The notes under the pieces were generated by a model. That model did no database searches, was not told the DNA's origin, and was given only the letters and a program-made list of their open reading frames with translations. This document shows, in pieces, positions 17,469 to 51,919 of a DNA stretch of 64,000 nt (position 1 is its first letter; each line of letters begins with the position of its first letter). The DNA comes from an uncultured Rikenella sp. (GTDB lineage: Bacteria > Bacteroidota > Bacteroidia > Bacteroidales > Rikenellaceae): NCBI RefSeq assembly GCF_910577125.1, contig NZ_CAJTMN010000002.1:7227-71226 (forward strand), read 5' to 3'. Position numbers and translations under genes: made by a program.

Positions 17469-17476
17469 CGCGCTCC

Positions 17477-23120: not shown

Positions 23121-23237
23121 TAAGGGGGGAAAAACGAAAAGTACAAGGGGGAGGATAGAAGAAAAAGACAGTAATGACAAATATATAAGAGAGTTACAAG
23201 AGAGCAGCAGGCGATAGGTTGAATAAACGAAAAGTAT
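23121..23237 (+). repeat. prophage left end (attL) with two putative transposase-binding repeats
   Basis: Terminus is TAAGGGGGGAAAAACGAAAAGTAC. The ACGAAAAGTAC core lies at 23134-23144, and a second copy, ACGAAAAGTAT, at 23227-23237. The same core occurs inverted at the right end. Confidence 0.7.
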
Positions 23238-23698
23238 AATTCGGTATAATTTCAGTATCATTCAGGGCGGCAAAATGGCCGCCTTTTTTGTTGCTTATAT
23301 AACCGACATTCCTAAACTCATATCGAAAGTATGATTTTCTTTCAAAAAACGCGCGCCGCGGTGACATCATAATATACAGCAACCCCAATAGCGGCGCAAA
23401 ATAGCACTCTTTTTACCCCTCGCCTCCAACTCTGCCACAATGACAAAAACAAGGCTCCAAAACGGGCGATTTTATCGCCTCTTTACCACCCTTTGAAGCC
23501 CATTTGACACCCTGCCGATTCCAGTCCGATTTTTTCAAAAATTGGAGTTGGTATTGCAGATGCTATTGCAGTTGCTATTGCAAATTCGGTCAAAAATATA
23601 CCGACTGAAAGGGGGATAGTGCCGAAAAAGTAAAGCTAAAAGGGTGTTTCCGAGGGATAGGCAGGGGGATAATACCGTCTGTTTGACCGAGTGTAAGC

Positions 23699-23731
23699 AT
23701 AAAAATGCGACAAAGTATTGATATGTCGCAT
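23699..23731 (-). terminator. rho-independent terminator downstream of the repressor gene
   Basis: 8-bp stem ATGCGACA (23705-23712) / TGTCGCAT (23724-23731), followed on the minus strand by TTTTT. Confidence 0.5.
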
Positions 23732-23763
23732 TATAGCAGAATAAAACAGATGTGTGCGCCGGT

Positions 23764-24597
23764 TTAGCTGTCTTTTCCCACTTTTTGAACGAGTTTGCCG
23801 ACAACGGTCGAAAGGTCGGAAATCTGTTTTTTCATCGTCTGCATCTCGTTCGCCATGCCGATCGGATCGGACGGTTCGCCGAGCGTTCGTACCAAGAAGA
23901 GTTCGACTGCCCAAATGGCGAAAATCTCCTCTTCCGGCAGCGAGATCGGCTTGTATAGCCGCTGGTCGGCATTGTCGGACAGCAGGGTAATTGTACCGTT
24001 ATGATGCAGTTTGTTTTCGATCCTCTTAATGAACGTACTCCCCTCTCGATTCGTTACGACATAAATCTCCTGGTTGCGTACGTGTTCCCACTCGCTCTCG
24101 TGCAGCCGTCGCACAATAACCCGACTATTATTATAGAGAGTCGGCGACATGGAATCTCCTACGACCTTAATACACAGCCGATCGGCCCGTCCACGCAACA
24201 TTCCTTTCGGTAAATAAATCATTTGCGACCGGTCCATGTACTCCGCATTCGAAGCACCGAACCCCGCGGCAGCTTCCATTTCGACAACCGGGACAGCGGT
24301 ATGATCGTCCGAAGGTGGTTCCATTTGCACAGCTGTAGACTTCGGAATGAGCGTTGGTGCCGGTCCTTCGCTTTTTAACATTTCACCCTGGCCGGTAAAG
24401 AACCATTCGGGATTTACATCGGAATAATACGAGAGAAATTTAATCGTATTATCTTCAGACAAACCATTGGGTTGAGTCAAAATGCCGTTCGATATACCAC
24501 AAGTTTTATAACATTGGTATTTTGTAATACCCTTGTATTCAAGGTATTCCAAAATACGAGCTTTTAGAATCGAAAAATCTCTCTTATTTATTTGCAT
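23764..24597 (-). CDS. phage repressor, HTH + S24 (LexA/CI-like) autopeptidase domain
   Basis: 277-aa ORF. N-terminal HTH (ITKYQCYKTCGISNGILTQ) and C-terminal VVGDSMSPTL...FIKRI Ser/Lys dyad. Leftward orientation next to the left end, as for Mu c. Confidence 0.85.
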   Translation of the reverse strand: MQINKRDFSILKARILEYLEYKGITKYQCYKTCGISNGILTQPNGLSEDNTIKFLSYYSDVNPEWFFTGQGEMLKSEGPAPTLIPKSTAVQMEPPSDDHTAVPVVEMEAAAGFGASNAEYMDRSQMIYLPKGMLRGRADRLCIKVVGDSMSPTLYNNSRVIVRRLHESEWEHVRNQEIYVVTNREGSTFIKRIENKLHHNGTITLLSDNADQRLYKPISLPEEEIFAIWAVELFLVRTLGEPSDPIGMANEMQTMKKQISDLSTVVGKLVQKVGKDS

Positions 24598-24672
24598 GAT
24601 TGAAATATCTCTCGTAATATTGCATTCAGATTCCGCACCGGAACGGTGTAAAGATACTCAAATAATCAAACA
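24598..24672. promoter_or_regulatory. divergent early control region (repressor / early operon promoters and operators)
   Basis: 75-bp AT-rich spacer between the leftward repressor and the rightward early genes. Positional inference only. Confidence 0.4.
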
Positions 24673-24885
24673 ATGAAAGAAGCCAGACAACGAATCATTA
24701 TGCCGCTGGGCGGACGCCTTCGGTTGGCGCTCGATTTCGAGGTAACGCCGCGAATGGCTTACAAGGCCTTGAACTTCGAGGGGCATTCGGACTTAGCCAA
24801 ACGGCTGCGAGCGGCAGCCCTCGAACGGGGCGGACAATTGTACGAGGCAGTCTCTGTCTCCGAACAAACAGGAGCGATTAACTAA
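24673..24885 (+). CDS. small early protein, Ner/Cro-position regulator (tentative)
   Basis: 70-aa ORF, first gene of the rightward early operon. Position matches Mu ner. Confidence 0.45.
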   Translation: MKEARQRIIMPLGGRLRLALDFEVTPRMAYKALNFEGHSDLAKRLRAAALERGGQLYEAVSVSEQTGAIN

Positions 24886-24898
24886 ACACGATACAACG

Positions 24899-25099
24899 AT
24901 GAGACGGTATTATTTCGAGCTGCTGGATAACGAATATAACGATTTGGGGGCCTGCATCCCGGATGGAAGTAATAAACAGGCGGCTATCAATCGCGCCAGG
25001 CAGTGGATGAAAGATAACGGTGTTGCGAGTGCGCAACTGTCTGTCAATAGCATGCGAACGAGCAATCTACTGGATGTGATCGAAATCGAGCTCGATTGA
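24899..25099 (+). CDS. small acidic hypothetical early protein
   Basis: 66-aa ORF between the Ner-position gene and the transposase. No motifs. Confidence 0.45.
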   Translation: MRRYYFELLDNEYNDLGACIPDGSNKQAAINRARQWMKDNGVASAQLSVNSMRTSNLLDVIEIELD

Positions 25100-25170
25100 A
25101 TGAGAGGCATCCCGCCACGGCACAAGGCCGTCGCCCGGAGCGAGATCGGGGCGGGAACTACGAATAACTC

Positions 25171-27120
25171 ATGGAATATTTAGGTAACATACTCTGCATT
25201 ACAGGCGGCGAGCTGATCCTCTCGGATAAAAATCCGAACGGGGTGATGCCTGTCGGCACTTATACGGCACTGGCCCACCGTGGAAAAATGCGCGTTCTGC
25301 GCCGTGCCTGTTATGGCAGTCCGGCACTGGTGGAGTATGACAGTCTGCCGGTGCGCTACCGCGAGGCGTGGGAGGCCCGGCACGGAGACCCGCATGCCCG
25401 GAGGAAGTTTGCCCCGTTCGCCGAACGGTTGCGCGAGGATACCGAAGCCTACAACGTCTTCACGGCCTACACCTACGACGGCGGGCGGAAGCTCCCGGAC
25501 GAGGCGATTGTCAGTTACTGCAACGACGCGATGATTCTGAACGCCGTTCGGGAAACACTGGAAGTGATGACGGCGGCACGCAAGGCTGCCCGGCTGTCGA
25601 TGGCCGGGCGTTGGGAAAAGATACTGAAACTGGTGGACGGCATTCGGGCCGACTACCCGAACAACCTGCCGAAAACGGCCATCACCCTCAAACGAAAATA
25701 CCAGCGGTACCAGGCCGAAGGGTATACGGCCCTGATTCACGCCGGATTCGGCAACCGGAACCGCGCCAAGGTCAAAGACCGGGTAGATCGGGCTGTCCTG
25801 CTCGACATCCTCAGCCACGGCAACCAGCTGCCCGCCACCGTCGCGGCCGAGACCTACAACCTCTGGGCAGCCTCGCACCGAGCGCCGACCATCACCCCGC
25901 GAACGGTACTCAACTACATGACCGAACATGCCGTGGAGATCGATGTCTCGCGCCGCGGCTCCAAGGCGTGGGCCGACGAGTTCGACCCGATCGTGCACCG
26001 TATTCGGCCGACCGCTCCGCTGCTGTTGGTCAATTCGGACGACAACGACCTCGATCTCTACTTCAAAAACGGGCGGGACAACTACTATCGTTTCAAACTA
26101 TACGTCGTATTGGATGCCCACTGCGATTACATCCTGGGCTATGCGTTCGGCGACCAGGTGACCAACGAATTGATTCGGGAAGCCTACCGCAACGCTATGC
26201 GCCACATCCGCGAACTGACCGGCGGATACTACCTCTGGCACCAGACGGTGGCCGACCGTTGGGGGCTGAGGTCGGACAACCTGCTCGGCTTTTTCGAGTC
26301 GCTGGCCACGTTCACCCCACCGACCGCCGGACTGGCCCGTGCGAAAGTGATCGAACGGTCATTCGGCACCGAGTGGCACAACGCCCTGAAACATTACAAC
26401 AACTACGCGGGCCACAACATTACGGCACGCGAGAAACACAACAGCGATTTCGCACAGACCAATCTCAAACGGAGACCGTCGATCGCGGAGGCTCCGGCGC
26501 TGATCGCCCGATTCATCGCCTCGATGCGGACACTGGAATGGAAAGGGAGCGGCCGGTCACGCGAGCAAGTGTGGCTCGATGGTTTTCGAGCAATGGGGGC
26601 CGACCGGGCGAAACGGATCTCCGAAGAGGTCTATCTGCAACGCTTCGGCCATCGGCACGAGTACAAAAACACGGTGCGAAACAGCGGCATCACGGTGACG
26701 ATCGGCGAGATACGCCGCACGTACGACGTGCCGGAGACAATCTATCGGCAGGCGGTCGGCCGAAAAGTCCGGATCACGTACGACCCGGCAGACCTCTCGC
26801 GGGTGCTGGTCGAGGGCGACCGGTTACGTTTCATCGCCCCGGAGAACGTGCCGCTGCCGATGGCTCTGGCCGACATGCAGCCGGGCGATCGTGAACGACT
26901 GAACGCCGTGCTGGAGCGCAAAAAACGACTCCGCGACCAGAACCGGCAATCGCGCGAAGAGCGGCGCGCGCTCCTGGAACGGATCGGAACCGATGCGCAG
27001 AGCCTCTTGCAGGCCGGAGTAATGGTCAAGGAGGCCCGTTTCGGGGCATCGGAGATCGTCAATCGGCTGACACTGAACGACGACCATGTGGACGGAGGAT
27101 CGATCCGGAGAAAATATTAA
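25171..27120 (+). CDS. MuA-like DDE transposase
   Basis: 649-aa ORF. rve-type core with candidate D (LLLVNSDDNDLD), D (VVLDAHCDYILGY) and E (IERSFGTEWH). Followed by a MuB-like ATPase. Confidence 0.85.
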   Translation: MEYLGNILCITGGELILSDKNPNGVMPVGTYTALAHRGKMRVLRRACYGSPALVEYDSLPVRYREAWEARHGDPHARRKFAPFAERLREDTEAYNVFTAYTYDGGRKLPDEAIVSYCNDAMILNAVRETLEVMTAARKAARLSMAGRWEKILKLVDGIRADYPNNLPKTAITLKRKYQRYQAEGYTALIHAGFGNRNRAKVKDRVDRAVLLDILSHGNQLPATVAAETYNLWAASHRAPTITPRTVLNYMTEHAVEIDVSRRGSKAWADEFDPIVHRIRPTAPLLLVNSDDNDLDLYFKNGRDNYYRFKLYVVLDAHCDYILGYAFGDQVTNELIREAYRNAMRHIRELTGGYYLWHQTVADRWGLRSDNLLGFFESLATFTPPTAGLARAKVIERSFGTEWHNALKHYNNYAGHNITAREKHNSDFAQTNLKRRPSIAEAPALIARFIASMRTLEWKGSGRSREQVWLDGFRAMGADRAKRISEEVYLQRFGHRHEYKNTVRNSGITVTIGEIRRTYDVPETIYRQAVGRKVRITYDPADLSRVLVEGDRLRFIAPENVPLPMALADMQPGDRERLNAVLERKKRLRDQNRQSREERRALLERIGTDAQSLLQAGVMVKEARFGASEIVNRLTLNDDHVDGGSIRRKY

Positions 27121-27138
27121 TCAAAATCCAAATACACA

Positions 27139-28026
27139 ATGATGACGAAAGAACAGAAACAGGAGATTCGAGACCGCCTGGAACGTTATACGGAACAGGT
27201 CGGCGGACAGAACCAGGCGGCAGCTATCCTCGCCGGGGTGAGTGCCGGAACGATTTCCCAAATTCTGAACGGCAAATGGGAACGGATCGCCGAGAAAATG
27301 TGGCTGAACCTCAGTGGCCAACTGTGGGATTATGCCTCCGACACGAGTGGCGGCGAGGAGTGGCATGGCGTTTCGACACGGCCCTACAACGAGTTGATGA
27401 CCACGTTCGAGGATGCCCGGCGTAGGTCCATGGCGATGGCGATCGTTGCGGACGCCGGGACAGGCAAAAGCTACACCGCTCGACGCTATGCGGCCGAAAA
27501 CGGTAGCCTGGTATTCTGTGTAACCTGTAAGGAGGGGTGGAAACTCAAAGCCTTCCTGAAAGAGGTACTGCGGGTGCTTGGCAAGAGTTCGGCTGCGTCG
27601 GATAACGACAACGAGGCGATGTACGCCGTAGTGGTCGAGACGTTGCGACGGAAGGCTCGCCCGGCCCTGATAATCGACGAGGCCGACAAGCTGCACAACG
27701 AGGTATTCCTGAAATTTATCGATTTGTTCAACGACCTCGAAGACCGGTGTGCGTTGGTGCTGATGGCGACCGACTACCTGGAGATGCGGCTGACGAACGG
27801 AGCGAAACGAGGGTATCGCGGGTATCGCGAAATCTTCTCGCGGGTCGGGAACCGTTGCGTCCGCATCCACCGGGCCGATGCGGCAGACGTGCGGGCGATC
27901 TGTCAGGCAAACGGCATCACGGATGCGGCCGAGGTGGCGGAAATTACGAACGACGCGGAGGGCGATCTGCGTCGGGTGAAACGGTCGATCATAGCTCTCC
28001 AGTTAGACAATGGCGCGCGCGGTTAA
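27139..28026 (+). CDS. MuB-like AAA+ transposition ATPase
   Basis: 295-aa ORF. N-terminal HTH (AAAILAGVSAGTISQILNGKWE), Walker A ADAGTGKSY, Walker B LIIDEADKL. Confidence 0.8.
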   Translation: MMTKEQKQEIRDRLERYTEQVGGQNQAAAILAGVSAGTISQILNGKWERIAEKMWLNLSGQLWDYASDTSGGEEWHGVSTRPYNELMTTFEDARRRSMAMAIVADAGTGKSYTARRYAAENGSLVFCVTCKEGWKLKAFLKEVLRVLGKSSAASDNDNEAMYAVVVETLRRKARPALIIDEADKLHNEVFLKFIDLFNDLEDRCALVLMATDYLEMRLTNGAKRGYRGYREIFSRVGNRCVRIHRADAADVRAICQANGITDAAEVAEITNDAEGDLRRVKRSIIALQLDNGARG

Positions 28027-28621
28027 TATCGGACAACTGCTGACGATGCGGTTCCCGCGAATCCCCCTGGAGGGGAGGTGGCGGGAGCTGCTGGGGCAGC
28101 CCGAGCTGCGGGGCAGCATCCTGATCTGGGGCGACTCGGCGCAAGGCAAAACCTCGTTTGCGCTCCAGCTCGCCAAAGAACTCTCCAAGTATGAGTCTGT
28201 GTTGTACGACTCGCTGGAGGAGGGAATCTCCGAGTCGATACGGGCGGCGTGCGTGCGGGAGGGAATGGTCGAAGTCGGGAGTCGGGTTTTGCTGCTGGAC
28301 AACGAACCGATCGCCGAACTGACCGAACGGCTCGCAAGACCCAAAAGTCGGAATGTCGTCATCGTCGATTCGTTGCAGTATACGGGAATGACGTTCGAGG
28401 CCTACAAAGAGCTGCTCGAACGGTTTCCGAAAAAGCTCTTCGTCTTCGTCTCGCACGCCGACGGACGAGAACCGGCCGGACGAATCGCAACGCAGGTCAA
28501 GTTCAACGCCAATATCAAAATACGGGTTTCGGGTTTTACGGCCTACGCGATCAGTCGCTACGGCGGCGGAATGCCCTATACGATCAGCGACGAGATGGCT
28601 GCTCGAATCAATCCGGAATAA
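28010..28621 (+). CDS. RecA/KaiC-like P-loop ATPase
   Basis: 203-aa ORF. Walker A GDSAQGKTSF and Walker B-like VVIVDSLQ. Confidence 0.55.
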   Translation: MARAVNIGQLLTMRFPRIPLEGRWRELLGQPELRGSILIWGDSAQGKTSFALQLAKELSKYESVLYDSLEEGISESIRAACVREGMVEVGSRVLLLDNEPIAELTERLARPKSRNVVIVDSLQYTGMTFEAYKELLERFPKKLFVFVSHADGREPAGRIATQVKFNANIKIRVSGFTAYAISRYGGGMPYTISDEMAARINPE

Positions 28622-28635
28622 AATACGACACGACT

Positions 28636-28848
28636 ATGAAAACCTTAACAGAGATAGGTCGGGAACGATCGCGGTGTCTCGAACGACTACAAGACTACCG
28701 TCGGACGCTTCGGGAAAGCGGCGGATACATGAGCGACACACGGTTGGCGGGCTACAAGACAGCTGTCGCAGATTGCGAAGCACAGATCGCCGCCCTCGAC
28801 GAGGAAGCAAGCCGGAGAACATTTAACAACCTTTCAAACATGTTTTAA
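28636..28848 (+). CDS. hypothetical early protein
   Basis: In-frame ATG at 28636 (MKTLTEIGRERSR...) within ORF 28249-28848. Tightly packed with its neighbours. Confidence 0.45.
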   Translation: MKTLTEIGRERSRCLERLQDYRRTLRESGGYMSDTRLAGYKTAVADCEAQIAALDEEASRRTFNNLSNMF

Positions 28849-28850
28849 CG

Positions 28851-29243
28851 ATGAAAAAAGTAACAAAAGAACAGGCAGAGGCAGCCGTACAGACGGTGCG
28901 GCAGTTGAAAATCCAGGCCTCGGAACTGACCGGGCGTATCAAAGACGCGGAGGCGGTCGTCGAGGCTTACGGGCTCGAACACCTGGGCGAGTTCGCCGAC
29001 GGGCGGCTGGCTCTCGATTCGGGTATTATAGCCATCAAGGCGGGAACCGCGAAGCCGGTCAAAGAGGGCAAGCCGCTTTCGACGGCTGCCCGCGCAGAAC
29101 TGGCCGCAGCGCTGCCTGCGGCCTACGTCAAGGTGGCGTGCGACTTCGGCGTGCTCTTCCAAAGTCAGGACAAGGCCGTGCGCCAGATTCTCAAAGCTCG
29201 CGGAATCGAGATCGTCCGCGAAGACAAGTTCGCAGTAATCTAA
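28851..29243 (+). CDS. hypothetical early protein, possibly Gam-like host-nuclease inhibitor
   Basis: 130-aa ORF. N-terminal coiled coil and position after the transposition genes, as for Mu gam. Similarity is only impressionistic. Confidence 0.4.
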   Translation: MKKVTKEQAEAAVQTVRQLKIQASELTGRIKDAEAVVEAYGLEHLGEFADGRLALDSGIIAIKAGTAKPVKEGKPLSTAARAELAAALPAAYVKVACDFGVLFQSQDKAVRQILKARGIEIVREDKFAVI

Positions 29244-29417
29244 ATGAAAAGCACAACAACACGTCACGTAACCTGTATCCGACCGAAACAGGGATACGAT
29301 TTGGTGGTCAGCAACAAGATCGGTCGAAATACCCCGTGTCCTTGTGGCTCAGGAAAAAAAGCGAAACATTGCTGTGGAACGAAGACTAAATATTACTCCG
29401 CGAAAGCGGTTAAATGA
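29244..29417 (+). CDS. SEC-C metal-binding motif protein (57 aa)
   Basis: Below the ORF-track cutoff. My translation is [57 protein letters not shown]. [15 protein letters not shown] is the SecA C-terminal zinc motif. Confidence 0.6.
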
Positions 29418-29426
29418 GAACCAACC

Positions 29427-29606
29427 ATGAAGATCACAGCCATTTATCAAAAAGAGGGGGCGAATCCTTTCCTCGAACGCGAGGGCGATTACAAACGGGT
29501 AACAGGTCGCGTTCCGGCCGGTTACGACGTGGACGAGGTCGAACATTACGCCATAGCCGCGACGCCGATAGGTTACGTCTTTGTCGGCTTGGAGCGGGCG
29601 GAATAG
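29427..29606 (+). CDS. small hypothetical protein (59 aa)
   Basis: My translation is MKITAIYQKEGANPFLEREGDYKRVTGRVPAGYDVDEVEHYAIAATPIGYVFVGLERAE. Compact spacing. Confidence 0.4.
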   Translation: MKITAIYQKEGANPFLEREGDYKRVTGRVPAGYDVDEVEHYAIAATPIGYVFVGLERAE

Positions 29607-29734
29607 CCTCTGTTTTCAGCACACCTCCCACCGCGTGCGCCTGCACCCATAGCGCGCGGCGGGACTCTCCCCGGCATCAGACGGTGGTGGCAGGCTGAGG
29701 GTTCGACTCCCTCGCCGGGGGCTAAAAGCAAAAT

Positions 29735-30220
29735 ATGGATACACGGTTTCAAAAGTCGAAAAATACGACAGACGAATGGTACACGCCGCGTGAAATAATC
29801 GATGTCCTCGGGCCGTTCGACCTCGATCCGTGCGCTCCGATGGCGAGATTGTGGGATACGGCAGCTAAACATTTCAACAAACAAGAGAACGGCTTGTTGC
29901 AGGAGTGGTTCGGGCGCGTATGGTTGAATCCTCCGTATTCGCATCCGCTGGTACTTCAATTCGTAAAGCGTCTGGCAGAGCATGGAAATGGAATTGCGTT
30001 GCTTTTCGATCGCTGCGACACTAAGATGTTTCACGAGGTGATATTTCCCAATGCGGATGGTGTGTATTTTTTGCGTGAACGAGTGCGTTTTTACCGACCG
30101 GATGGCACACGTGGCGGATCACCGGGGTGTGGTTCGGTGTTGGTGGCATTCGGGGCAGAAAACGCCGAGAAAATATTGAATAGTGGACTGAAAGGCACGC
30201 TATTACGAGTAGAACGATGA
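29735..30220 (+). CDS. phage DNA N6-adenine methyltransferase (Dam family)
   Basis: 161-aa ORF. DEWYTP and WLNPPYS catalytic (NPPY) motifs. Confidence 0.8.
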   Translation: MDTRFQKSKNTTDEWYTPREIIDVLGPFDLDPCAPMARLWDTAAKHFNKQENGLLQEWFGRVWLNPPYSHPLVLQFVKRLAEHGNGIALLFDRCDTKMFHEVIFPNADGVYFLRERVRFYRPDGTRGGSPGCGSVLVAFGAENAEKILNSGLKGTLLRVER

Positions 30221-30305
30221 AAGTCTTAAGTCTATTCGACGGCATGAGTTGCGGGCAGGTCGCCCTGCGGCGGATAAACAACAACTGAAAACTGAAACTG
30301 GAATT

Positions 30306-30737
30306 ATGAAAATCTACGTAGCAAGCAGTTGGCGCAACCGATATTACACGGAAGTTGTCGCCCATCTCAGACAATTAGGACACGAAGTGTATGACTTTCG
30401 CAACCCGGTGCCATACGGAGGGTTCTCTTGGTCGGAAGTTGCCCCAAACTGGCAAAGCTGGACAATGGAAGAATATAAAAAGGCCCTTTCTCACCCGAAT
30501 GCAGAGAGAGGTTTCGGTTCGGATTTTGGTGCGATGCAATGGGCCGACGCCTGCGTGTTGGTTTGTCCTTGTGGGCGGTCGGCACATACTGAGGCTGGGT
30601 GGATGGCTGGGACGGGCAAACCTGTCTGGGTTTATATCCCGGAACCACAAGAGCCTGAGTTGATGTATAAAATATACGAGCGAATAGTTACTGATATGGC
30701 AGAACTCGATGACTTGAACGATAGAACAGACCGATAA
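30306..30737 (+). CDS. nucleoside 2-deoxyribosyltransferase-like superfamily protein
   Basis: In-frame start MKIYVASSW at 30306. GRSAHTEAGWMAGTGKPVWVY resembles the NDT-like catalytic Glu segment. Confidence 0.5.
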   Translation: MKIYVASSWRNRYYTEVVAHLRQLGHEVYDFRNPVPYGGFSWSEVAPNWQSWTMEEYKKALSHPNAERGFGSDFGAMQWADACVLVCPCGRSAHTEAGWMAGTGKPVWVYIPEPQEPELMYKIYERIVTDMAELDDLNDRTDR

Positions 30738-30749
30738 CACTTTCCAGCT

Positions 30750-31250
30750 ATGAAGACCTACCGTGATAGCCTGCTGGCTAAGTTGCACATTCTACTGAAA
30801 GAACAGGGCGTGGACGAAGAGACCAAACGAGCCATGTACGCCGGATATGGCGTCGATAGTACGGCCGATCTGACCGCGCCGCAACTGCGGCACTTGGTCG
30901 GTTCGTTAGCTGGCGAAGCGGTTCCGGAGGTCGCCCCGAGGCAGGTGTCGAACGAGACCCGCCGCCTGCGGTCGCAGTGCCTCGCGCTGATGACAAAGAG
31001 TCCCGACCCGGCGAACATCAAACTGCGCGGCCTCGGACTGCCGAACGACTGGGCGGTGTTGAACGCTTTCGTCGAACACCACGCCGGGGCCACGCTGAAC
31101 CGGCTGACCGACGAGGAACTGGAACGATTCGCCCGCAAGCTCCGCGCCATGCGTTCCTCCGGCTGGTTCTATAATGCTCCACGGCAGACGACCGCCTCTC
31201 CTGCTGCGGTGGTTGTGCTGGCCCCGACCGACTGCGGTACCGTAAACTAA
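30750..31250 (+). CDS. GemA/gp16-like (DUF1018) regulatory protein; carries the protospacer for spacer 42
   Basis: 166-aa ORF. Mu gemA position and the typical ...AMYAGYGVDSTADLTAPQLRHLV segment. Confidence 0.55.
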   Translation: MKTYRDSLLAKLHILLKEQGVDEETKRAMYAGYGVDSTADLTAPQLRHLVGSLAGEAVPEVAPRQVSNETRRLRSQCLALMTKSPDPANIKLRGLGLPNDWAVLNAFVEHHAGATLNRLTDEELERFARKLRAMRSSGWFYNAPRQTTASPAAVVVLAPTDCGTVN

Positions 31251-31268
31251 AAAGCCCCGAACAAAGGA

Positions 31269-31547
31269 TTGTCCGAGGCGTCGAGTTTGGCCGCTCGACA
31301 CAAAGATAATCAAAACGGGAACATGGCATATAACAAAAAAGGATATTTCGATCGAGCACGACGGATGCGAGAGATTACGGAGCAATACTACGAGCCGGAG
31401 AACCATCGCAAGTGTAAAAAGGCGATTTGGCGCACGTACATAAGGCCGATTTACGGTGTATGTTATCAAACCTATATCAGCAGTTTACAGGCCCTTCGGA
31501 TGTTGGAGGCCGAACAAACACAAACAGAGAAAAGCCCGCCGAAATAG
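31269..31547 (+). CDS. hypothetical protein (Mor position)
   Basis: 92-aa ORF with an alternative start MAYNKKGYF at 31323. Followed by a terminator. Confidence 0.45.
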   Translation: MSEASSLAARHKDNQNGNMAYNKKGYFDRARRMREITEQYYEPENHRKCKKAIWRTYIRPIYGVCYQTYISSLQALRMLEAEQTQTEKSPPK

Positions 31548-31562
31548 TGCGGGCTTTTCTTA
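31530..31562 (+). terminator. rho-independent terminator ending the early/middle operon
   Basis: Stem AGCCCGC (31533-31539) / GCGGGCT (31549-31555), followed by TTTTCTT. Confidence 0.6.
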
Positions 31563-31565
31563 TAT

Positions 31566-31883
31566 TTGCGAAAAACAATTATGATGAGCGAGTTGTTTAT
31601 GGCAATCGTAGCCGTCGGCAGTTTGGTTCTTTGGGTCGTCCTGCTGGTTGCATTCTTTCAGTTGGTCGGCGACGTGCGTAAAATCAAGGCCCGATTGGCG
31701 GATAAAGACAGCGAATATTTCCGGTATGCGAATCTCGCCAAAGAGGAGCACGCTCTGGGAAACATCGACAAAGAACGCGAATATCTGATTCGGGCACAAT
31801 GCCATGCCTATTATGCCGAGCAAGAGGAAACCGTCCGCAAACTGATTGCTGTGCTGGATCGGAAAAACGGAGAGGAGATATAA
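31566..31883 (+). CDS. small membrane protein
   Basis: 105-aa ORF. Hydrophobic helix LFMAIVAVGSLVLWVVLLVAFFQLV. Confidence 0.5.
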   Translation: MRKTIMMSELFMAIVAVGSLVLWVVLLVAFFQLVGDVRKIKARLADKDSEYFRYANLAKEEHALGNIDKEREYLIRAQCHAYYAEQEETVRKLIAVLDRKNGEEI

Positions 31884-31884
31884 A

Positions 31885-32328
31885 TTACTCGTCGAACTCC
31901 TCGTCGAACGTTGCCGTGAACACGATCCGGTAAACTTTCAGTGCATCGTCCCGCCGTTCGGCCTGTTGTGTCATCCGTGACAGGTTGCTCGAAAATCCGC
32001 AATCGAATCCCTGCAACGCCTGGACAACGGCTTGCACGGTGTCCAATATCGCCAACGACCGTTCGCGCCATACGCGCGGAGTGAGGTGGTTCGTCTCGTC
32101 CGTGATGGCCAATTCGACAACACGCACGGTAATCGTTGCCCGGCATTGCTGATCGCGGCCTCCTGTGTCTTCGCAACTCGGGAACTCGATGTCGATCAGG
32201 GCCGCCGGATAGTCCATTCCTTGCCGAGTCTCCGGGTTGTCGGTCTGTCCCTTGTCGAGATCGATCAGCCGGAGTTCCGGTACTGCTTTCGCCAATCGGT
32301 CGGCGATTTTCAAATAGAATTTTTTCAT
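31885..32328 (-). CDS. phage head-tail joining / completion protein (tentative)
   Basis: 147-aa ORF, last gene of the leftward morphogenesis block, downstream of the G-like gene. Confidence 0.45.
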   Translation of the reverse strand: MKKFYLKIADRLAKAVPELRLIDLDKGQTDNPETRQGMDYPAALIDIEFPSCEDTGGRDQQCRATITVRVVELAITDETNHLTPRVWRERSLAILDTVQAVVQALQGFDCGFSSNLSRMTQQAERRDDALKVYRIVFTATFDEEFDE

Positions 32329-32341
32329 GGTTTAATTCGGG

Positions 32342-32911
32342 TTAAAGTGAAACCAAAGCCCGAAGCCGTTCGACAATTCGACGGTTCAAGGCAACGGATT
32401 TGCCGATGAATTTTCGTTGAGGAATCGTTATGTGCAACTGCTTGGCGACTGCCGCACGCCCCCAGCGACCGAGGCCGCTCCCGTCGGTCGTTTCACCCGC
32501 TGCGTAGGCTTTTGCCCAAAAGAACCGCTGCTGTTTCGGTGTCGGTTTCTGCTCGATCGTTCCCCCTTCGTTGTGGATGCGGGCATAGGGGACGCGCGGA
32601 CTACCGGCCCGGATCGTCGCTTCGGAAGGCGTTACACGCGCCGGTCGGATCGTGGAGACCAACGCTCCGGATCGCACCATCAGCGACCCGCGCGAAGACG
32701 GATTTTTAGCTACGGCCCACGGTACGCCTTCCCATTCTTTAGTCGTGAAACGCTGTTTGTAAAATTCCGTGGCTGTTTCGGCTATGATCCGTGTCCCGTC
32801 CTGACGGATACGTTCCGAGGCGGCGGCGATTTTTTTGCGTAAAGTCTCGAAATCTCCCATTCTCTTCGTATATTTGTGGTAAGTAATCTCCCTGCGGGTG
32901 TAAGTGCTCAT
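32342..32911 (-). CDS. phage virion morphogenesis protein (Mu G-like)
   Basis: 189-aa ORF. YARIHNEGG motif of the virion morphogenesis family. Confidence 0.7.
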   Translation of the reverse strand: MSTYTRREITYHKYTKRMGDFETLRKKIAAASERIRQDGTRIIAETATEFYKQRFTTKEWEGVPWAVAKNPSSRGSLMVRSGALVSTIRPARVTPSEATIRAGSPRVPYARIHNEGGTIEQKPTPKQQRFFWAKAYAAGETTDGSGLGRWGRAAVAKQLHITIPQRKFIGKSVALNRRIVERLRALVSL

Positions 32912-32991
32912 GGCGTGCCTCGTGAGTGGTCGGACGCTTGAGACGGCTGGTGAACCAGCGTAGGGAATTATTAACTCACAAGAGCCTCCCT

Positions 32992-35493
32992 CTATTCGGA
33001 GGCTTTTTTATTGTACACCAGGAGTCCCCGGCGGTGGTGCTGCTGAACGGACTTCTTGCCGGCCAGCGGGAACCACGTTCGCACTTCATTGATTCGACCA
33101 CCGGCTATTTTACAACACACGACGATCACTTCATCCCGGTAATAGCGGATCAAGGTATAGTTGTCGTAAACACTTTTCCCTCTCTCCGCATTAATCCACA
33201 CTTCGTCCGGATCGTTCAGCGTTTCCGGTAGGGCTTGCAGGTATTCTACCCGTGCGGCATGACTGCCGGTCGTATGCGTCCGGAAGCTCTTTTCAGATAA
33301 GAACACCTTTCGTCCGGATCGATCGGTCAGCATGACGACGCCGTCCCGCTGACGGGCGGCAAACCACTCCTCGGCCGTACCCGTAAAACGTGGCATGTCA
33401 CTCGTAGCCGTCGTTTGTCGTTTCGCCATCGTCGGCAACCCATAATCGACCGCACCAAGTCGGTTCAGATATTTGGCCGCCCGGTTCGGGAATTTGCGGA
33501 TATATTGCTGGTTCGTCGTGAAGACCTCGCGCAGTTCGGCCCGGTTCACCCCGAAACCCTGGGCCGCTGCGGTTTTGAACTCGCCGGTCTCGAAATAGGC
33601 ATCTGCCCGGCGTTGCATATCGGGCAGATTGATTCCTTCCGTTTCGTGCCGCATCCGCGGAAGCACGTAACAACGGCAGTTCCAGCCGTTGGGCGGGTAT
33701 ATCTTTCCCCACCGGGGGTCGTTGGTCGGTAACACGAGTCCGTTCAAGGCCGCATGTTCGGGCCGTACTTTGTCGTCGCCGACCGTCCGATATTCCCAAT
33801 AAGGAAATAGCATGTTTTGGCTCAATAGACGGTAATAGGTCGAGGTGCTTTCGGCGACCTGATCGGCCGTATCGTATTCGGTTTGCGCCCAGCGACGATT
33901 GAACGTGTCCGTGATTTTCGCCGCCCGTTCCATGTAGTCCTCGAAACTGCGGCTCGCCCGGTAGGCTTGGTTGAGCTGCTGAATCTCGGTCAGCGTTTTG
34001 GCTGCCGAGAAGTGGTAGAGGTTTGTCTCCATGGCCGTCAGGACTACGTCGTCCGCGGTACCGTATTCGATACTATTCCGCAGTCCGATACCTCCTTTCC
34101 GCCAACCGGTGTGAAAGGCATGCAGGAGTCGGTCGGCCGTATGATCGAATAGTTCTCGGTCGAAATACCGGGCCTCTCCGCGCGCTACGCGTTTGGCGAG
34201 TCGGCGGTCGAAGCCGTCGCCCGCCATCTCTCCCAGGTCGTTACGCTCGCCAGTGGTCGCCCCCGTAACGGGGGCTTCGGCGAAAAAACCGAAGACCCTT
34301 TCCAAGAAATTCCGCGCACCGTTCGTCCCGGTCGGATCGTCGGTGTCCGGCGGTTCGACAAAACCCGTTCCGTTCGGTTCCACCACCTCTTCGTCCGCTT
34401 CGGGTTGGGGAATGCCAGTAATTTTGTAAACGTGACTGGTCGGGACCGGCACAGATAACTTCGCTGCCCGCTCGACAAGGCTCAGTCGATCGGCCGCCCC
34501 TAAGTTTTCGCCCTGTTCGACGAACGCAAAGCACCCTCCGGAGACTGGAAACCCTCGTTTTTCGAGAAGCGGCAGGAGTTGCGTATTGAGGACCCGTTGC
34601 ACGAACCGACGGTCTGCGTTATGCAAATCTTCCTGTACCTGCATGTGTACCTCGCCCAATGAGCGCGCCCCTTTGTCACCCTGAATCGTGGTCAGTGTCT
34701 GACCGAGGATGCCGATCAGAATCTCTTCGTTGCAGGCTTTCCGTAGCATGTCGTACACACCGCCGTCGCCGCTGGCCGCTCCGGGTTCTACTTTGAAATC
34801 CGAACCTTTCGGCAGGATATTGACCAATGCGCCGCCTGCTGCTTCCAGCGCTTTCTGCAATTCCAGGCGAGCACTGTCGTCGAACGTTTCGTAATAGGCC
34901 GTGCGCATCGGCATACCGAAAATTTCAGCATATTGCGCCCAGTCGCCGAAGTTGTTCCGTTTGTAAAGCACGAACGGTGCTACGTTGAGCAGCAGGCCGA
35001 GGTCGTCCGCCTCGCCGACCTCCAGAAAAAAGTCGTCTTCGCGATACGGAATGCCCCGCTCGTCGTTCTCCTCCAGGGCAATCTCGCCGAACTGAGGCCG
35101 AATATGTTTCGATGGTATCGGGTGCGGAATGATTCGGTCTTCGACAAACTCCATTTCCGTAACCGTGATTCCCAGAAATCGGGCCTGCATGATCTCCGTG
35201 AGAACCGACTCGAAGCCGGAGCTATCCATCATTCGGTCGATCGTCTCTTCCGGTTTGTTGTCGCGCGTGAAAACAAGTTCCGCGTTCGTGATAGCCGAGA
35301 CGCGCTTACGAACGGCATCACGGAGTACGTTGTCGCGCATCAGTTCGGCGTACAGGTTATATAACTGCTGACGTTTGCCCCGGTCGGCCGAGCGCAAGGC
35401 ACGCTGAACGTTATCGATGTCGAGGTTTGTGCGGTTCGGAGCCTTGATGGTGATCTGGTTAATTACCAGTTCCTGCTCTTGTTTATTCTCCAT
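32992..35493 (-). CDS. fused portal (DUF935, Mu gp29-like) + MuF (gp30/SPP1 gp7-like) protein with a ~220-aa C-terminal extension
   Basis: Single open frame. The start is taken at MENKQEQ (35493), since the upstream gene ends at 35514. The MuF hallmark VRPEHAALNG...NGWNCRCYVLP lies near residue 600, and the frame continues to 32992. Confidence 0.85.
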   Translation of the reverse strand: MENKQEQELVINQITIKAPNRTNLDIDNVQRALRSADRGKRQQLYNLYAELMRDNVLRDAVRKRVSAITNAELVFTRDNKPEETIDRMMDSSGFESVLTEIMQARFLGITVTEMEFVEDRIIPHPIPSKHIRPQFGEIALEENDERGIPYREDDFFLEVGEADDLGLLLNVAPFVLYKRNNFGDWAQYAEIFGMPMRTAYYETFDDSARLELQKALEAAGGALVNILPKGSDFKVEPGAASGDGGVYDMLRKACNEEILIGILGQTLTTIQGDKGARSLGEVHMQVQEDLHNADRRFVQRVLNTQLLPLLEKRGFPVSGGCFAFVEQGENLGAADRLSLVERAAKLSVPVPTSHVYKITGIPQPEADEEVVEPNGTGFVEPPDTDDPTGTNGARNFLERVFGFFAEAPVTGATTGERNDLGEMAGDGFDRRLAKRVARGEARYFDRELFDHTADRLLHAFHTGWRKGGIGLRNSIEYGTADDVVLTAMETNLYHFSAAKTLTEIQQLNQAYRASRSFEDYMERAAKITDTFNRRWAQTEYDTADQVAESTSTYYRLLSQNMLFPYWEYRTVGDDKVRPEHAALNGLVLPTNDPRWGKIYPPNGWNCRCYVLPRMRHETEGINLPDMQRRADAYFETGEFKTAAAQGFGVNRAELREVFTTNQQYIRKFPNRAAKYLNRLGAVDYGLPTMAKRQTTATSDMPRFTGTAEEWFAARQRDGVVMLTDRSGRKVFLSEKSFRTHTTGSHAARVEYLQALPETLNDPDEVWINAERGKSVYDNYTLIRYYRDEVIVVCCKIAGGRINEVRTWFPLAGKKSVQQHHRRGLLVYNKKASE

Positions 35494-35513
35494 GGATCGG
35501 TATTTGAAAAGCG

Positions 35514-35927
35514 TTAAAAGTGTGTCGTCCGTTTCGGATTGCTGCTGAAATAGAACGGTCCCGACGAAACGCCCTCGTCTGGATTCTTTTTCGGCAAGTC
35601 GGGTACGATCTCCCCTTTTTGTACCCCTCGGAGCCATGCCACCGCACGCTCGTAGCGCGCCTGGCGGCGATCGTAGTAATTCCCGGCTGCACACAGGTTG
35701 ATGAGGTGATATACGGCGATGTCTTTGCAAAAGATCAACAGCAGCGGGTCGCGAGCCTCGCCCGTGGCGGCAAAAATGGTCTCGGTGTCGTAAGCGGTCA
35801 GATAGCCTCGCGCCTCCGCTATCGCGCCCGACAGGGCTGCGGTGATGATTGTCTCGTCAGCGCGGGAGATCAGTTCGGCGTGCTCTTCCCGCAGGTGTGT
35901 CCGCAAGTCGTCCGGTGTCAGAAACAT
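35514..35927 (-). CDS. DUF1320 (Mu gp36-like) head protein
   Basis: 137-aa ORF between terminase and portal. N-terminal FLTPDDLRTHL is typical of the family. Confidence 0.6.
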   Translation of the reverse strand: MFLTPDDLRTHLREEHAELISRADETIITAALSGAIAEARGYLTAYDTETIFAATGEARDPLLLIFCKDIAVYHLINLCAAGNYYDRRQARYERAVAWLRGVQKGEIVPDLPKKNPDEGVSSGPFYFSSNPKRTTHF

Positions 35928-35929
35928 GG

Positions 35930-37456
35930 TCAGTATCGTTTGGAATTTCGGGTTCTCGGTATGGAAATAATCGGTTGTTCGAGGGTAACCTGCTTTTCCC
36001 GGACGATGTAGATACCGCCCTCGACGGCATCCACACCGTCGGCCGGAGCCGACAGTTTGGGTCCGAAGAGCCGAAACTGCTCTTTGAGTCGTTGCATGTG
36101 GGGATTACCCTGTTCGTCAATATTGAAGACCAGTTGTCCGAGCCGTACGAGCGGCTCCAGTCCTGACTCGATACGGGCAAACTTTTCGCCCTTGCGCCGG
36201 GTGTCCGGCGTGATGCCTATATAGGCACCCGTCCGACGGCCTTTTGCCGCAAAGGCCGGGACGTAGACTTGTGTGTAAAACGGGTCTTGCAGGGTGTTGT
36301 TTTCGATATACCAGTAGACAGGCGGACAACGATCGCCGATCCAGTCCCGCAGGTCGAAAAACCACTGGACGAACGTATCCGTGCTGGCATTGTCTACGAA
36401 ACATTTGATTACGTAGTACCTCCCTCGACAGAAACCCAACAGGACGAGCGCTTTGGTCGAGGAACTCCGCTGCCGGGCATTGTTCGACGGGGACGGGTCG
36501 GCATAGGCGATCAAAAACCGGAACCGATCCAGGGGCGGAACTTGGCCCCACGTCAATTCGCCGAACGTATTTCCTTCCGTAATCGGGTTGTTGTAGTATT
36601 CGCCCTGTTGAGCTTTATACGAGATTTTCGACAGCACCCGGTCGATCATCTTCTCGGTATTTTTGTCGGGCCACGTAGACCGGCCGTGCTTGTCGCGGAT
36701 GTTGATGATGTCCGTGTGGTCGGCCCTGTCCATTGCCCGCCGGATGCAGCAATCCTCGGCTATGACGTTTCCGCAGAAGATCACGGTCAGAGGAGTGGAA
36801 ATCGAGCGGGTCGGATAGAGAGCCTGCTCGAACCAATCCCACTTCTTTTTCAGCACCTCCGGATTCCGGCACTCTTCGTCCGTGTCGAAATCATCGACCA
36901 GCAACACGTCCGGACGGCATTCGTTGTTCCGCGAACCGCGCGGACTTTGTCCGGCCCCGACCGCTCGGAAAGCCGCTCCGTTACGGAGGGTAAACTCTTC
37001 TGCGGTCCATAGACCGAGGTTCCGCTGTACGCCGTAGTCGTGCATGACGCGCTCGTTGCTCTCGAAAAACGCCCGGTAGGGAGCTAACAGCCGTTCGGCG
37101 TTGTTCTGTGTGTTGGAGGTCAGGATGACCGTCCGTTTCCGGCCGGTCAGCACCAAGTAGCACACCTCCATCATCGTGCGGGCCGACTTGGCCAGTTCGC
37201 GCGACCAGGCGCGCACCTCGTACCACTCCGGATTTGCCAACACTCGACGTGTGGCAGCCGTGTGGAACGGAGCTGGGGCCGCCGTATAGAATCGCGGGAA
37301 ATAGTAACTGAACCATGTCTCCGGTTCCTTTTCCAAGGTTTTGATCCGGCGGCGACGGTCCGAGCGGGTTTCGTTCGGATCGACTTCGAGACCGCTGTTG
37401 AACGATCGCTGAAAGGCGTACCACTCTTCGTATGCTCTCTTTTCGTCGGCAGTCAT
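35930..37456 (-). CDS. terminase large subunit
   Basis: 508-aa ORF. ATPase and nuclease halves (LLVDDFDTDEE Walker B-like). Position after a small HTH protein. Confidence 0.85.
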   Translation of the reverse strand: MTADEKRAYEEWYAFQRSFNSGLEVDPNETRSDRRRRIKTLEKEPETWFSYYFPRFYTAAPAPFHTAATRRVLANPEWYEVRAWSRELAKSARTMMEVCYLVLTGRKRTVILTSNTQNNAERLLAPYRAFFESNERVMHDYGVQRNLGLWTAEEFTLRNGAAFRAVGAGQSPRGSRNNECRPDVLLVDDFDTDEECRNPEVLKKKWDWFEQALYPTRSISTPLTVIFCGNVIAEDCCIRRAMDRADHTDIINIRDKHGRSTWPDKNTEKMIDRVLSKISYKAQQGEYYNNPITEGNTFGELTWGQVPPLDRFRFLIAYADPSPSNNARQRSSSTKALVLLGFCRGRYYVIKCFVDNASTDTFVQWFFDLRDWIGDRCPPVYWYIENNTLQDPFYTQVYVPAFAAKGRRTGAYIGITPDTRRKGEKFARIESGLEPLVRLGQLVFNIDEQGNPHMQRLKEQFRLFGPKLSAPADGVDAVEGGIYIVREKQVTLEQPIISIPRTRNSKRY

Positions 37457-37893
37457 CGTAACGCCTCCTTTATAAATGCGTCATAGAGCGGCAAAAACTC
37501 CACGGCCCGATCCGGATCGGTCTCGCGCAACCAGGTAAGGAACTGGCGGCCGACCTCCACTTTATGGGTGATATTCGTTTCTGTTTCCAGCTTTTTAATG
37601 GCATTCGTCAGTTTGGTGATCGTATCCGCCTCTTTGCTGGTGACGTAGTTGGCATCGTCGCGCGCTTCGACCGCTTCGCGAATTGCATTCAGCTGTTGGT
37701 GCAGCCAACCCAACAGGTCTTCCCGTCCGCCGAGCAGGGAGGTTTTCAACCGTTCCCACTGCTCCTCCCGCACCCATTTGCTCACGGTCGCCTCCGTAAC
37801 GCCGACTCGCGCGGCAATCTCTTTCTGCGTAATCCCTTTTTCGGATAGATAGAGCGTTTTGGCGAAATCTTTTTTCTGTTGTCTCGACTGCAT
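37453..37893 (-). CDS. terminase small subunit (HTH)
   Basis: 146-aa ORF. HTH ITQKEIAARVGVTEATVSKW and a 4-bp overlap with TerL. Confidence 0.65.
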   Translation of the reverse strand: MQSRQQKKDFAKTLYLSEKGITQKEIAARVGVTEATVSKWVREEQWERLKTSLLGGREDLLGWLHQQLNAIREAVEARDDANYVTSKEADTITKLTNAIKKLETETNITHKVEVGRQFLTWLRETDPDRAVEFLPLYDAFIKEALR

Positions 37894-38012
37894 GTCTCTT
37901 TTTTATGCAAAGGAACGGTACTCTGCATCCATCCGAAAAAATCATATAAAGCGTTAATGCTCTTTTTGTTGTGGGCATTCAGGAAGGCGAATTTTGCACA
38001 AAAAAGAACCGA

Positions 38013-39116
38013 ATGTCAAAAGCCTATATAGACATCATCGACCGCGAGCGGCGAGAAGCGACGATCCGCCTGTACGGTGCTATCGGCGAGAAGATCGACG
38101 GCGACCTTTTCGCCCAGGAACTGGCCTCGCTGGACAACCAGTACGACCTGATCCGTCTGCGGATCAACAGTCCCGGCGGCGATGTGACCCAGGGACTCAG
38201 CATCGTGGGGGCCATGTTGTCGATGCAAACGCCGATCCATGTACACGTGGATGGCGTGGCGGCCAGTATGGCCGCCGTGATCGCTGTGTGTGGCGACAAA
38301 CTCTACATGTACGATTTCGCCCGGCTGATGATCCACGATCCTTATTTCGCCGGGGCAGACGAATTGAGCCCGAAGATGGAGAAGCAGCTGGCACGGACCA
38401 AAGAGACCCTAACGCGCATTCTGAGCCGTCGGGGTAAGGACGCTGCCGAGGTGGAGCGACTGATGAGCGAGGAGACTTGGTTCTCGGCCAAGGAGGCAAA
38501 AGAGGCCGGCCTGTGCGACGTGATCGTCGGTTCACGCCAAAAGGCACTTATGAATCTCGCACCGGACGAACTCCGCGTGCGCATCGACGAACAACACCAA
38601 ATCCAAAACAATATGACCAAACTATCTGAAAAAGCCGCCGCTTCGCTCGGCATCAAGGCCGAAGCGCCGGACACCGAGGTCTCTGCGGCTATCGAAACGT
38701 TGCATGCGTCGAAAGTAGCTGCTGAAAAAGCCAAAGTCGAAGCCGAAGAGGCACGGACGAAGGCAGAAAAAGAGCTGAACGATTACAAAGCCAGCATCCG
38801 GGCAGAGAAGAAAGCCGCATTCGTGGCCCAGCTCGAGGCGGGTGCCAAGTCCGGTAAGATCGACGCAAGCGGAGTCGCCACATTTTCGGCCATGTACGAC
38901 ACAGACCCGGAAAACGCACTCAAAGCATTCGAGGCTATCCCCGAACGTGAACCGGTACACAACCGGCTGTCGTCCAAGAAAGAACAGGACAAAGCCCTTC
39001 TGGATGCCTCGTGGGACGAACTCGACAAGGCTGGACGACTGGGCGAATTGAAGACCAAGTATCCGGACGAGTACAAGGCCAAGTTCGACGAACGATTCCA
39101 CCCGAACGAAGACTAA
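38013..39116 (+). CDS. ClpP-like (S14) head maturation protease fused to scaffold
   Basis: Start MSKAYIDII at 38013. INSPGGDV and GVAASMAAVI (catalytic Ser), then a charged coiled-coil C-terminal half. Confidence 0.8.
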   Translation: MSKAYIDIIDRERREATIRLYGAIGEKIDGDLFAQELASLDNQYDLIRLRINSPGGDVTQGLSIVGAMLSMQTPIHVHVDGVAASMAAVIAVCGDKLYMYDFARLMIHDPYFAGADELSPKMEKQLARTKETLTRILSRRGKDAAEVERLMSEETWFSAKEAKEAGLCDVIVGSRQKALMNLAPDELRVRIDEQHQIQNNMTKLSEKAAASLGIKAEAPDTEVSAAIETLHASKVAAEKAKVEAEEARTKAEKELNDYKASIRAEKKAAFVAQLEAGAKSGKIDASGVATFSAMYDTDPENALKAFEAIPEREPVHNRLSSKKEQDKALLDASWDELDKAGRLGELKTKYPDEYKAKFDERFHPNED

Positions 39117-39137
39117 CCGAAAAACAACCAACAAATT

Positions 39138-40172
39138 ATGGCTGAATTACAAGTAGAAATCTGGCAGGATCACCTGGTCGGGGGCATCTTTGCTGCTAAT
39201 CCGCATATGGATAAATGCGTGAATGCCGACCATTACGTCCTGAAAGGGAAAGTGGTTCACATTCCGCAGGCCGGTGCCGCGCCGAAAGCGGTGAAGAACC
39301 GGACCGATCTCCCGGCCAAAGTGGTGCGACGCAAGGACACCGACATTACTTACACGCTGGACGAGATCACCACCGATCCGGTCCATATCCCGGATGCCGA
39401 TCAGTGCGAGCTCTCGTATGACAAACGCGCCTCGGTGCTGACCGAAACGCAGAATGCCCTCAACGAGCTGGCCGGCGACCTGATGCTGCTCAACTGGGCA
39501 CCGCCCGCTTCGCGCATCATCCGTACCAGCGGCGAAGCCGTACCGGCACACATGGGGATCGGTTCGCGGCTGAAATTCACGACCAAGGACCTGAAACGGG
39601 CTCAGAAACAGTTCAACAGAGACGGTGTTCCGACGGCCGATCGCTACATCATGCTCGATGCCGACATGGAAGACCAGTTCACCGACAGTCTGACCGAGAA
39701 CCAGGCTCGCGACTTCTCACGGGCATACGACGAGAAGAACGGCGTGATCGGGAAGCTGTACGGCTTTACCTTCCTGTCCCGCGCCTACGTATTGTCGTAC
39801 CTCGGTATGGGGGCCGTTGAAAAAGCCGAAGAGTTCGCCGCCGCCACCTGTGCCGCTGCGCTCTGCTGGCACAAGGACAGCGTCGAGGGGGCAAAAGGAG
39901 AGGTCAAACTGTTCGACGACGAAGGTAATCCGCTCTATTTCGGCGACATCTATTCATTCCTGCTCCGTATGGGCGGCCGCATCCGTCGCGCCGACAACAA
40001 AGGCGTGTTGGCCATCGTGCAGGGTGTGCCGTCCGAAGCCTGGGCAACCGGAAAGGCATACAAAGAGGGCGATTTCGTAACCTCCGGCGAACTGCTTTAT
40101 ATCTGTACCGGAGACCACACCGCCTCGGCCGCATTCGAGACCGATGCCGAAAACTGGGAGGTAGTCGAATAG
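39138..40172 (+). CDS. major capsid protein
   Basis: 344-aa ORF immediately after the protease-scaffold gene. Typical size. Confidence 0.75.
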   Translation: MAELQVEIWQDHLVGGIFAANPHMDKCVNADHYVLKGKVVHIPQAGAAPKAVKNRTDLPAKVVRRKDTDITYTLDEITTDPVHIPDADQCELSYDKRASVLTETQNALNELAGDLMLLNWAPPASRIIRTSGEAVPAHMGIGSRLKFTTKDLKRAQKQFNRDGVPTADRYIMLDADMEDQFTDSLTENQARDFSRAYDEKNGVIGKLYGFTFLSRAYVLSYLGMGAVEKAEEFAAATCAAALCWHKDSVEGAKGEVKLFDDEGNPLYFGDIYSFLLRMGGRIRRADNKGVLAIVQGVPSEAWATGKAYKEGDFVTSGELLYICTGDHTASAAFETDAENWEVVE

Positions 40173-40176
40173 CACT

Positions 40177-41373: not shown

Positions 41374-41374
41374 C

Positions 41375-41962: not shown

Positions 41963-41974
41963 CGGAGGCTGGCA

Positions 41975-51236: not shown

Positions 51237-51248
51237 AAACATTACGAA

Positions 51249-51917: not shown

Positions 51918-51919
51918 CT

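Follow-up and report, generated by a model that had tools for sequence, protein, structure and literature searches.

A Mu-like prophage that splits cas3 in an uncultured Rikenella carries a seed-mismatched candidate target of its host's own type I-B CRISPR array

Introduction

The closest described parallel to the locus reported here appears to be the relationship between CRISPR2 spacer 1 of P. aeruginosa PA14 and the Mu-like phage DMS3, in a type I-F system. That spacer matches the phage imperfectly, which leads to low-level self-targeting in lysogens, and in the laboratory the conflict was resolved by mutation of the spacer, by frameshifts in cas genes, and by phage-mediated deletions of the locus (PMC11406979). 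The consequences of imperfect matches have also been described for type I-B. In the reconstituted I-B system of T. maritima, target binding is lost when any one of positions 1-5 or 7 is mismatched, and position 6 does not pair, as is true of each sixth base (PMC13199841). Interference by the I-B system of Haloarcula hispanica depends on the seed, and priming there withstands more mismatches if the PAM is acceptable (PMC4066796). The I-B system of C. difficile takes new spacers from DNA flanked by CCN, and its interference accepts YCN (PMC8406132); the I-B group of C. difficile and P. furiosus, with repeats that end in AAT or AAG, is tabulated together with its PAM in PMC13199841.

Here we describe what appears to be a natural counterpart, in an uncultured gut member of the Bacteroidota, of the laboratory conflict between PA14 and DMS3: a PAM-valid, seed-mismatched self-target found together with a cas3 gene that is probably dead. 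The window (the whole stretch of 64,000 nucleotides that was analysed, to which all unprefixed coordinates refer) comes from a metagenome-assembled draft genome of a Rikenella species (2.36 Mb in 183 contigs, 92% complete). As in PA14, a type I spacer coexists in one cell with a Mu-like prophage to which it has several mismatches, and CRISPR function has in all likelihood been lost. The Rikenella case differs from the I-F example in that the system is type I-B, the host is a gut commensal of the Bacteroidota, and the lesion is the prophage's own insertion into cas3; it is represented by one metagenome-assembled genome. This is a natural case of a known kind of conflict and involves no new mechanism. 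New here are an empirical PAM, a comparison of three alleles of the target site, and statistics on the placement of mismatches relative to the seed.

Results and Discussion

A type I-B locus with cas3 divided by a prophage

By every model tried (PADLOC, TIGR03641), the cas genes in the window are of type I-B, and the signature set for this subtype (Cas8b, Cas7b, Cas5b, Cas6b, Cas3, Cas4, Cas1b and Cas2) is complete. All of the genes lie on the minus strand in the order cas6-cas5-cas3-cas8-cas7-cas4-cas1-cas2, which differs from that of the I-B systems compared here. At one end are cas6b (55806..56606; TIGR01877; PADLOC Cas6b, 2.7e-59) and cas5b (55208..55804; PADLOC Cas5b, 5.3e-78). At the other are cas8b (20167..21450; PADLOC Cas8b, 2.1e-147), cas7b (19067..20134; PADLOC Cas7b, 2.1e-176), cas4 (18490..19041; PADLOC Cas4b, 2.4e-57), a cas1 of the I-B type (17477..18493; TIGR03641 at 449.5 bits against a cut-off of 304; PADLOC Cas1b, 2.3e-167), and cas2 (17205..17483; Pfam CRISPR_Cas2, E 1.2e-21). 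The Cas8b protein was scored only by the PADLOC Cas8b model and had no match in Pfam or NCBIfam.

Between these two groups of genes, cas3 (PADLOC Cas3b, E 3e-233) is present as two separate open reading frames rather than as an intact gene that joins HD nuclease and helicase. The 5' part (54660..55201, minus strand) encodes the HD nuclease and covers positions 2-172 of the 691 in the PADLOC Cas3b profile (also TIGR01596), and the 3' part (21460..23120, minus strand) encodes the helicase and covers positions 169-689 (also TIGR01587). The gene is thus split between profile positions of about 172 and 169 by a 31.5-kb Mu-like prophage (23121..54659, plus strand) with MuA, MuB, Gam, Dam and GemA homologues. 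In a genome of the same genus (G105) with an intact cas3, the two flanks of the prophage lie within that gene at a distance of 16 nt from each other; the disruption of cas3 claimed in a first-pass annotation of the window is borne out. Cas3 is required for both interference and priming. Integration of a Mu-like phage occurs by transposition, and the event that made the cell a lysogen would therefore also have been the one that disrupted cas3.

The prophage is flanked by CGAC, an exact 4-bp duplication (23117-23120 and 54660-54663) that becomes one of 5 bp when a single mismatch is allowed. The target duplication of Mu is usually 5 bp. That the site is otherwise empty is confirmed by G105, with its intact cas3.

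Orientation of the array and derivation of the PAM

The CRISPR array (13823..16994, minus strand) consists of 49 repeats of 30 nt, one of which has 31 nt, and 48 spacers. Repeats at its right end are perfect, whereas those at its far (left) end include variant and degenerate copies. A 210-bp segment between cas2 and the first repeat (16995..17204, minus strand) is the likely leader, given its position relative to cas2 and the perfect repeats beside it. On the minus strand the 30-nt repeat has the 3' end ATTGAAAT, as in I-B repeats of about 30 nt that give an 8-nt 5' handle (ATTGAAA-N); Cas6 is predicted to process the ATTGAAAT-ended repeat into such a handle. The degenerate left end, the putative leader beside cas2 at the right end, the direction shared by array and cas genes, and the ATTGAAAT repeat end together identify the minus strand as the one that would yield crRNA.

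For derivation of the PAM, the DNA of the whole array was searched against 400 genomes from the family and every one of the 14 from the genus, and full-length spacers were then re-aligned to the matched regions. Protospacers were recovered for ten distinct spacers (sp1, 3, 4, 5, 7, 21, 22, 31/32, 38 and 46b), as well as for two from the array of G105, where the repeat is two bases different from that of the present array. The targets are phage genes, encoding a large terminase, a head protein, a collagen-like tail fibre, a DnaC-like loader, and the product of a gene that adjoins gemA in another Mu-like prophage. A match of sp6 (6 mismatches, E 0.07, flank TCC) was excluded from the count as unreliable. 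In the INPHARED phage collection, the array (blastn in distant mode) had only two matches, both at chance level.

All 12 independent protospacers have CC at positions -3 and -2 on the crRNA-identical strand. Position -1 is variable (G in 5, T in 4, A in 2 and C in 1), and no preference was seen in the 12 at positions -6 to -4 or at +1 to +5 past the protospacer. With a background CC frequency of 7.1% in these phage sequences, an outcome of 12 in 12 has a probability of about 2e-14. A homologous sp31/32 site in a more distant genome has CTT in place of CCT. Because CC occupies -3/-2 in every one of the 12 against this background, we assign 5'-CCN as the PAM of the system from the aligned protospacers, and the CCG of the resident prophage is a valid PAM. 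The first-pass annotation had suggested that the PAM might be of the CCN type known for some I-B systems, and had proposed a PAM logo from the protospacers of other spacers as a check. That check, run here, returned a CCN consensus on the side and strand that had been assumed, in accord with published I-B systems (PMC8406132, PMC13199841) and with the minus-strand orientation of the crRNA.

The Rikenella system resembles that of Clostridioides difficile in a repeat that ends in AAT, in an I-B gene set, and in a 5' CCN PAM on the crRNA-identical strand; its PAM is derived bioinformatically and not by library assay. This is the first bioinformatic PAM (5'-CCN) for a Rikenella I-B system, and it should be useful both for assigning phages to hosts and for repurposing the endogenous system.

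An imperfect match of spacer 7 in the prophage

Spacer 7, counted from the leader (16537..16570, minus strand), is the only spacer with a notable match to the host's own DNA in the 2.36-Mb assembly (BLAST E 1e-5). Its crRNA-sense sequence, the reverse complement of 16537-16570, is GAAGCCGCCCCGCGGCAGGTGTCGAACGAAACCC, and the protospacer on the plus strand of the prophage (30927..30960) is GAGGTCGCCCCGAGGCAGGTGTCGAACGAGACCC. The two agree at 30 of 34 positions and differ at crRNA positions 3, 5, 13 and 30; the PAM slot at 30924..30926 (plus strand) holds CCG, which fits the 5'-CCN consensus. Position 30927 is also the start of a codon in the plus-strand reading frame 30750-31250, and the codon pairs of resident and spacer are GAG/GAA (synonymous), GTC/GCC (V/A), AGG/CGG (synonymous) and GAG/GAA (synonymous). 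When re-read in this way, the match agrees with the first-pass description of the site in the number and positions of the mismatches, with two of them in the seed, in the ratio of three synonymous changes to one V/A change, in the coincidence of position 30 with a sixth base, and in the CCG at the PAM position. By reference to T. maritima I-B (PMC13199841), mismatches 3 and 5 fall within the defined seed (1-5 and 7), and 30 is an unpaired sixth base.

The site at 30924-30960 therefore appears to be a genuine CRISPR target with a valid PAM, imperfectly recognised by spacer 7 of the host's own array. It combines the two features of a self-target tolerated through cas inactivation, namely a match to own DNA with a valid PAM and a disrupted interference gene. 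Similarity by chance, with no biological relation between spacer and prophage, is in effect refuted, and we give it next to no credence. An E of 1e-5 was reached in the genome for a single spacer, and the second-best match in the prophage, from a brute-force scan with all spacers, has 11 mismatches. The site moreover lies in a phage gene and has next to it the PAM of the system, which has a background of 7%, and both site and PAM are conserved in a related phage described below (IMG/VR contig L074).

The reading frame that contains the protospacer (30750..31250, plus strand) encodes a GemA-like protein of 166 aa. Its match to Pfam GemA (PF06252; E 2.6e-5) scores 25.6 bits against a 27-bit cut-off, and several of its close homologues carry a precomputed PF06252 match. 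Upstream of the gene, in the Mu-like early region to which it belongs, are the MuA, MuB, Gam and Dam homologues; many relatives of its product, with 60-92% identity, are found in public assemblies. An alignment of GemA homologues places the protospacer over a variable linker patch, E-[V/S/M/A/T]-[A/T]-P-R-x, followed by an invariant VSNETRRLRSQC motif. The linker around 30915-30945 (alignment columns of about 58-73) is the most variable part of the protein, with indels in more distant homologues.

Relatives of the prophage as a whole were also found. A prophage in another genome (G089) shares 84% identity with the resident across 10.5 kb, and contig L074 is 74-82% identical to the resident prophage, with a GemA that is 77% identical. 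Given these values, a match of 88% over 34 nt between spacer 7 and the resident is unremarkable for this Mu-like family. A spacer in the array of G105, a genome of the same genus with intact cas3, matches the gene that immediately precedes gemA in the G089 prophage with 1 mismatch and a CCC PAM (L011:531-568, on contig JAFLSI010000015.1 of Rikenella sp. HAN023). Taken with the resident case, this match suggests that the early region of the Mu-like family is targeted by the I-B arrays of two Rikenella species.

Three alleles of the target and the origin of the mismatches

In the first-pass annotation the site was proposed to be either an escape allele or a diverged homologue. The homologous site in L074, which keeps the CCG PAM, allows these to be compared. 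It differs from the spacer at positions 3, 9, 17 and 30 and from the resident at 5, 9, 13 and 17, so that spacer, resident and L074 are pairwise equidistant at 4 differences, in an unrooted comparison over 34 nt only. Each has two states of its own: the spacer donor at 3 and 30 (GAA for GAG in both cases), the resident at 5 and 13, and L074 at 9 and 17. Half of the spacer 7 mismatches thus reflect no change in the resident phage, since 3 and 30 belong to the spacer donor, and the states that are unique to the target phage are restricted to 5 and 13. The equidistance of L074 and the assignment of 3 and 30 to the donor favour the second half of the earlier proposal, a diverged homologue.

The first half fares less well. 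In a true escape, the spacer donor would be the ancestor of the resident, and selection to defeat spacer 7 would have favoured the seed changes of the resident, above all the C to T at position 5. Two of the four mismatches (3 and 5) are indeed in the seed; the only non-synonymous change falls at seed position 5, where, of 17 homologues, the resident alone has Val; and with the PAM intact, the seed would have been the only route. However, positions 3 and 30 are common to the resident and the independent allele L074 and so are not new in the resident, three of the four changes are synonymous, and one change, not four, is normally enough. Nor are the mismatches concentrated in seed or PAM, because the PAM is intact and the finding of two of the four mismatches within positions 1-8 is not significant against random placement (P=0.23). 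The patch varies in all homologues (V, S, M, A or T at the residue concerned), as would fit a relaxed linker. Other spacers show the same pattern against phages of other hosts. Among the other eleven protospacers, 7 of 41 mismatches are in positions 1-8, against 9.4 expected, and the mismatches are synonymous in 5 of 5 cases for sp4 (in TerL) and in 5 of 6 for sp6 (in a tail fibre), both in heterologous phages; synonymous counts were limited to protospacers whose reading frame was validated by a PHROG match. On balance we regard a true escape as unlikely, and the Ala-to-Val change at seed position 5 is left as the sole candidate for a selected escape change, a possible one.

The host side of the pairing was also considered. 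If the spacer had come from the resident or a near-identical phage and had later mutated in the array, autoimmunity would have been relieved, and mutation of the spacer seed is a documented route out of self-targeting in DMS3 lysogens of P. aeruginosa PA14 (PMC11406979). In keeping with this, the spacer is the odd one out at 3 and 30 relative to the two phage alleles. Both of these spacer-unique differences, however, are GAG/GAA wobble changes, a codon signature that would have no reason to arise in an array, and at 5 and 13 it is the spacer that agrees with L074 and the resident that stands apart. The insertion itself also broke cas3, so no selection to mutate the spacer would have continued. 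We consider such an origin highly improbable.

The mismatches are better explained, in our judgement, by a spacer that was acquired from a diverged relative of the resident phage. A homologue of GemA (P0010) encodes exactly the peptide of the spacer, EAAPRQVSNET. No perfect 34/34 phage match was found in IMG/VR, with a degenerate pattern that covered both alleles, or in genomes and metagenomes, which were searched by protein, and the spacer donor is accordingly a phage that we infer rather than one that was observed. The single GemA protein detected no relative in IMG/VR, whereas an alignment used as query detected one contig, L074. The same GemA alignment, run against metagenome and genome contigs, found only distant alleles, with 46-65% identity and with the patch rearranged by indels.

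A model for coexistence of spacer 7 and the prophage

We think it likely that spacer 7 derives from a diverged relative of the resident phage, that the seed mismatches probably block interference, and that the split of cas3 removes priming. According to this model, the spacer would have been taken from another phage in the resident's own Rikenella Mu-like family, and the four differences would reflect standing divergence between alleles, with the protein under purifying selection, rather than a set of escape mutations. With mismatches at 3 and 5 in the I-B seed, direct interference against the resident phage would probably have been weak or absent, allowing infection and lysogeny; the mismatch at position 30 should be neutral, and position 13 lies outside the seed.

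In type I systems, priming classically acts on targets that combine mismatches with a valid PAM, and the Rikenella site is predicted from its sequence to be such a target. At a site of this kind, with a valid PAM and a mismatched seed, primed uptake of spacers and lethal self-targeting would normally be expected. By transposing into cas3, and so parting the HD nuclease from the helicase, the prophage may have abolished interference and priming together. This order of events, the loss of interference, and any selective connection of the cas3 insertion with the mismatched target are proposed here from the arrangement of the locus. The six spacers that are newer than spacer 7 gave no match to the resident prophage, either in the BLAST search of the assembly or in the brute-force scan, so that the array carries no trace of priming against it. 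Spacers newer than spacer 7 instead target an unrelated phage, found on contigs of a genome of the same genus (G129), as do sp21, 22, 31/32 and 38.

A further reading would make the E-x-x-P-R-x patch of GemA a recurrent CRISPR target in this Mu-like family. Its diversity, including the Ala-to-Val change of the resident, would then be driven by diversifying selection that spacers impose, and the resident would be a seed escaper that later became secured in cas3. We hold this to be quite unlikely.

Other features of the array

At least nine spacers of the array, with sp1, 3, 4, 5, 21, 22, 31/32 and 38 among them, target the one non-Mu phage on the G129 contigs, in what looks like repeated or primed acquisition. 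The possibility that the G129 phage is a relative of the resident prophage was rejected, as no similarity between the two was seen by blastn or tblastx. The protospacers of sp21 (15625-15660) and sp1 (16929-16964) share 9 nt of one strand of a single phage gene (L044:1704-1766), and each has a CCG PAM; sp21 is the oldest and sp1 the newest of this pair. Spacers 32 and 31 (14906-14939 and 14970-15003) are identical, the result of a tandem duplication of one spacer-repeat unit, and their protospacer lies in the DnaC-like loader gene of the G129 phage, with the PAM CCT.

At the old end of the array (13823-14676), two variant repeats, ending in GTAAGATTGGAAG and GTAGGATTAGGAG, alternate in blocks at 14018-14247, 14283-14512 and 14548-14641, and one repeat, at about 13952-13982, has a 1-nt insertion. 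These alternating blocks and the insertion suggest recombination between arrays or duplication of blocks.
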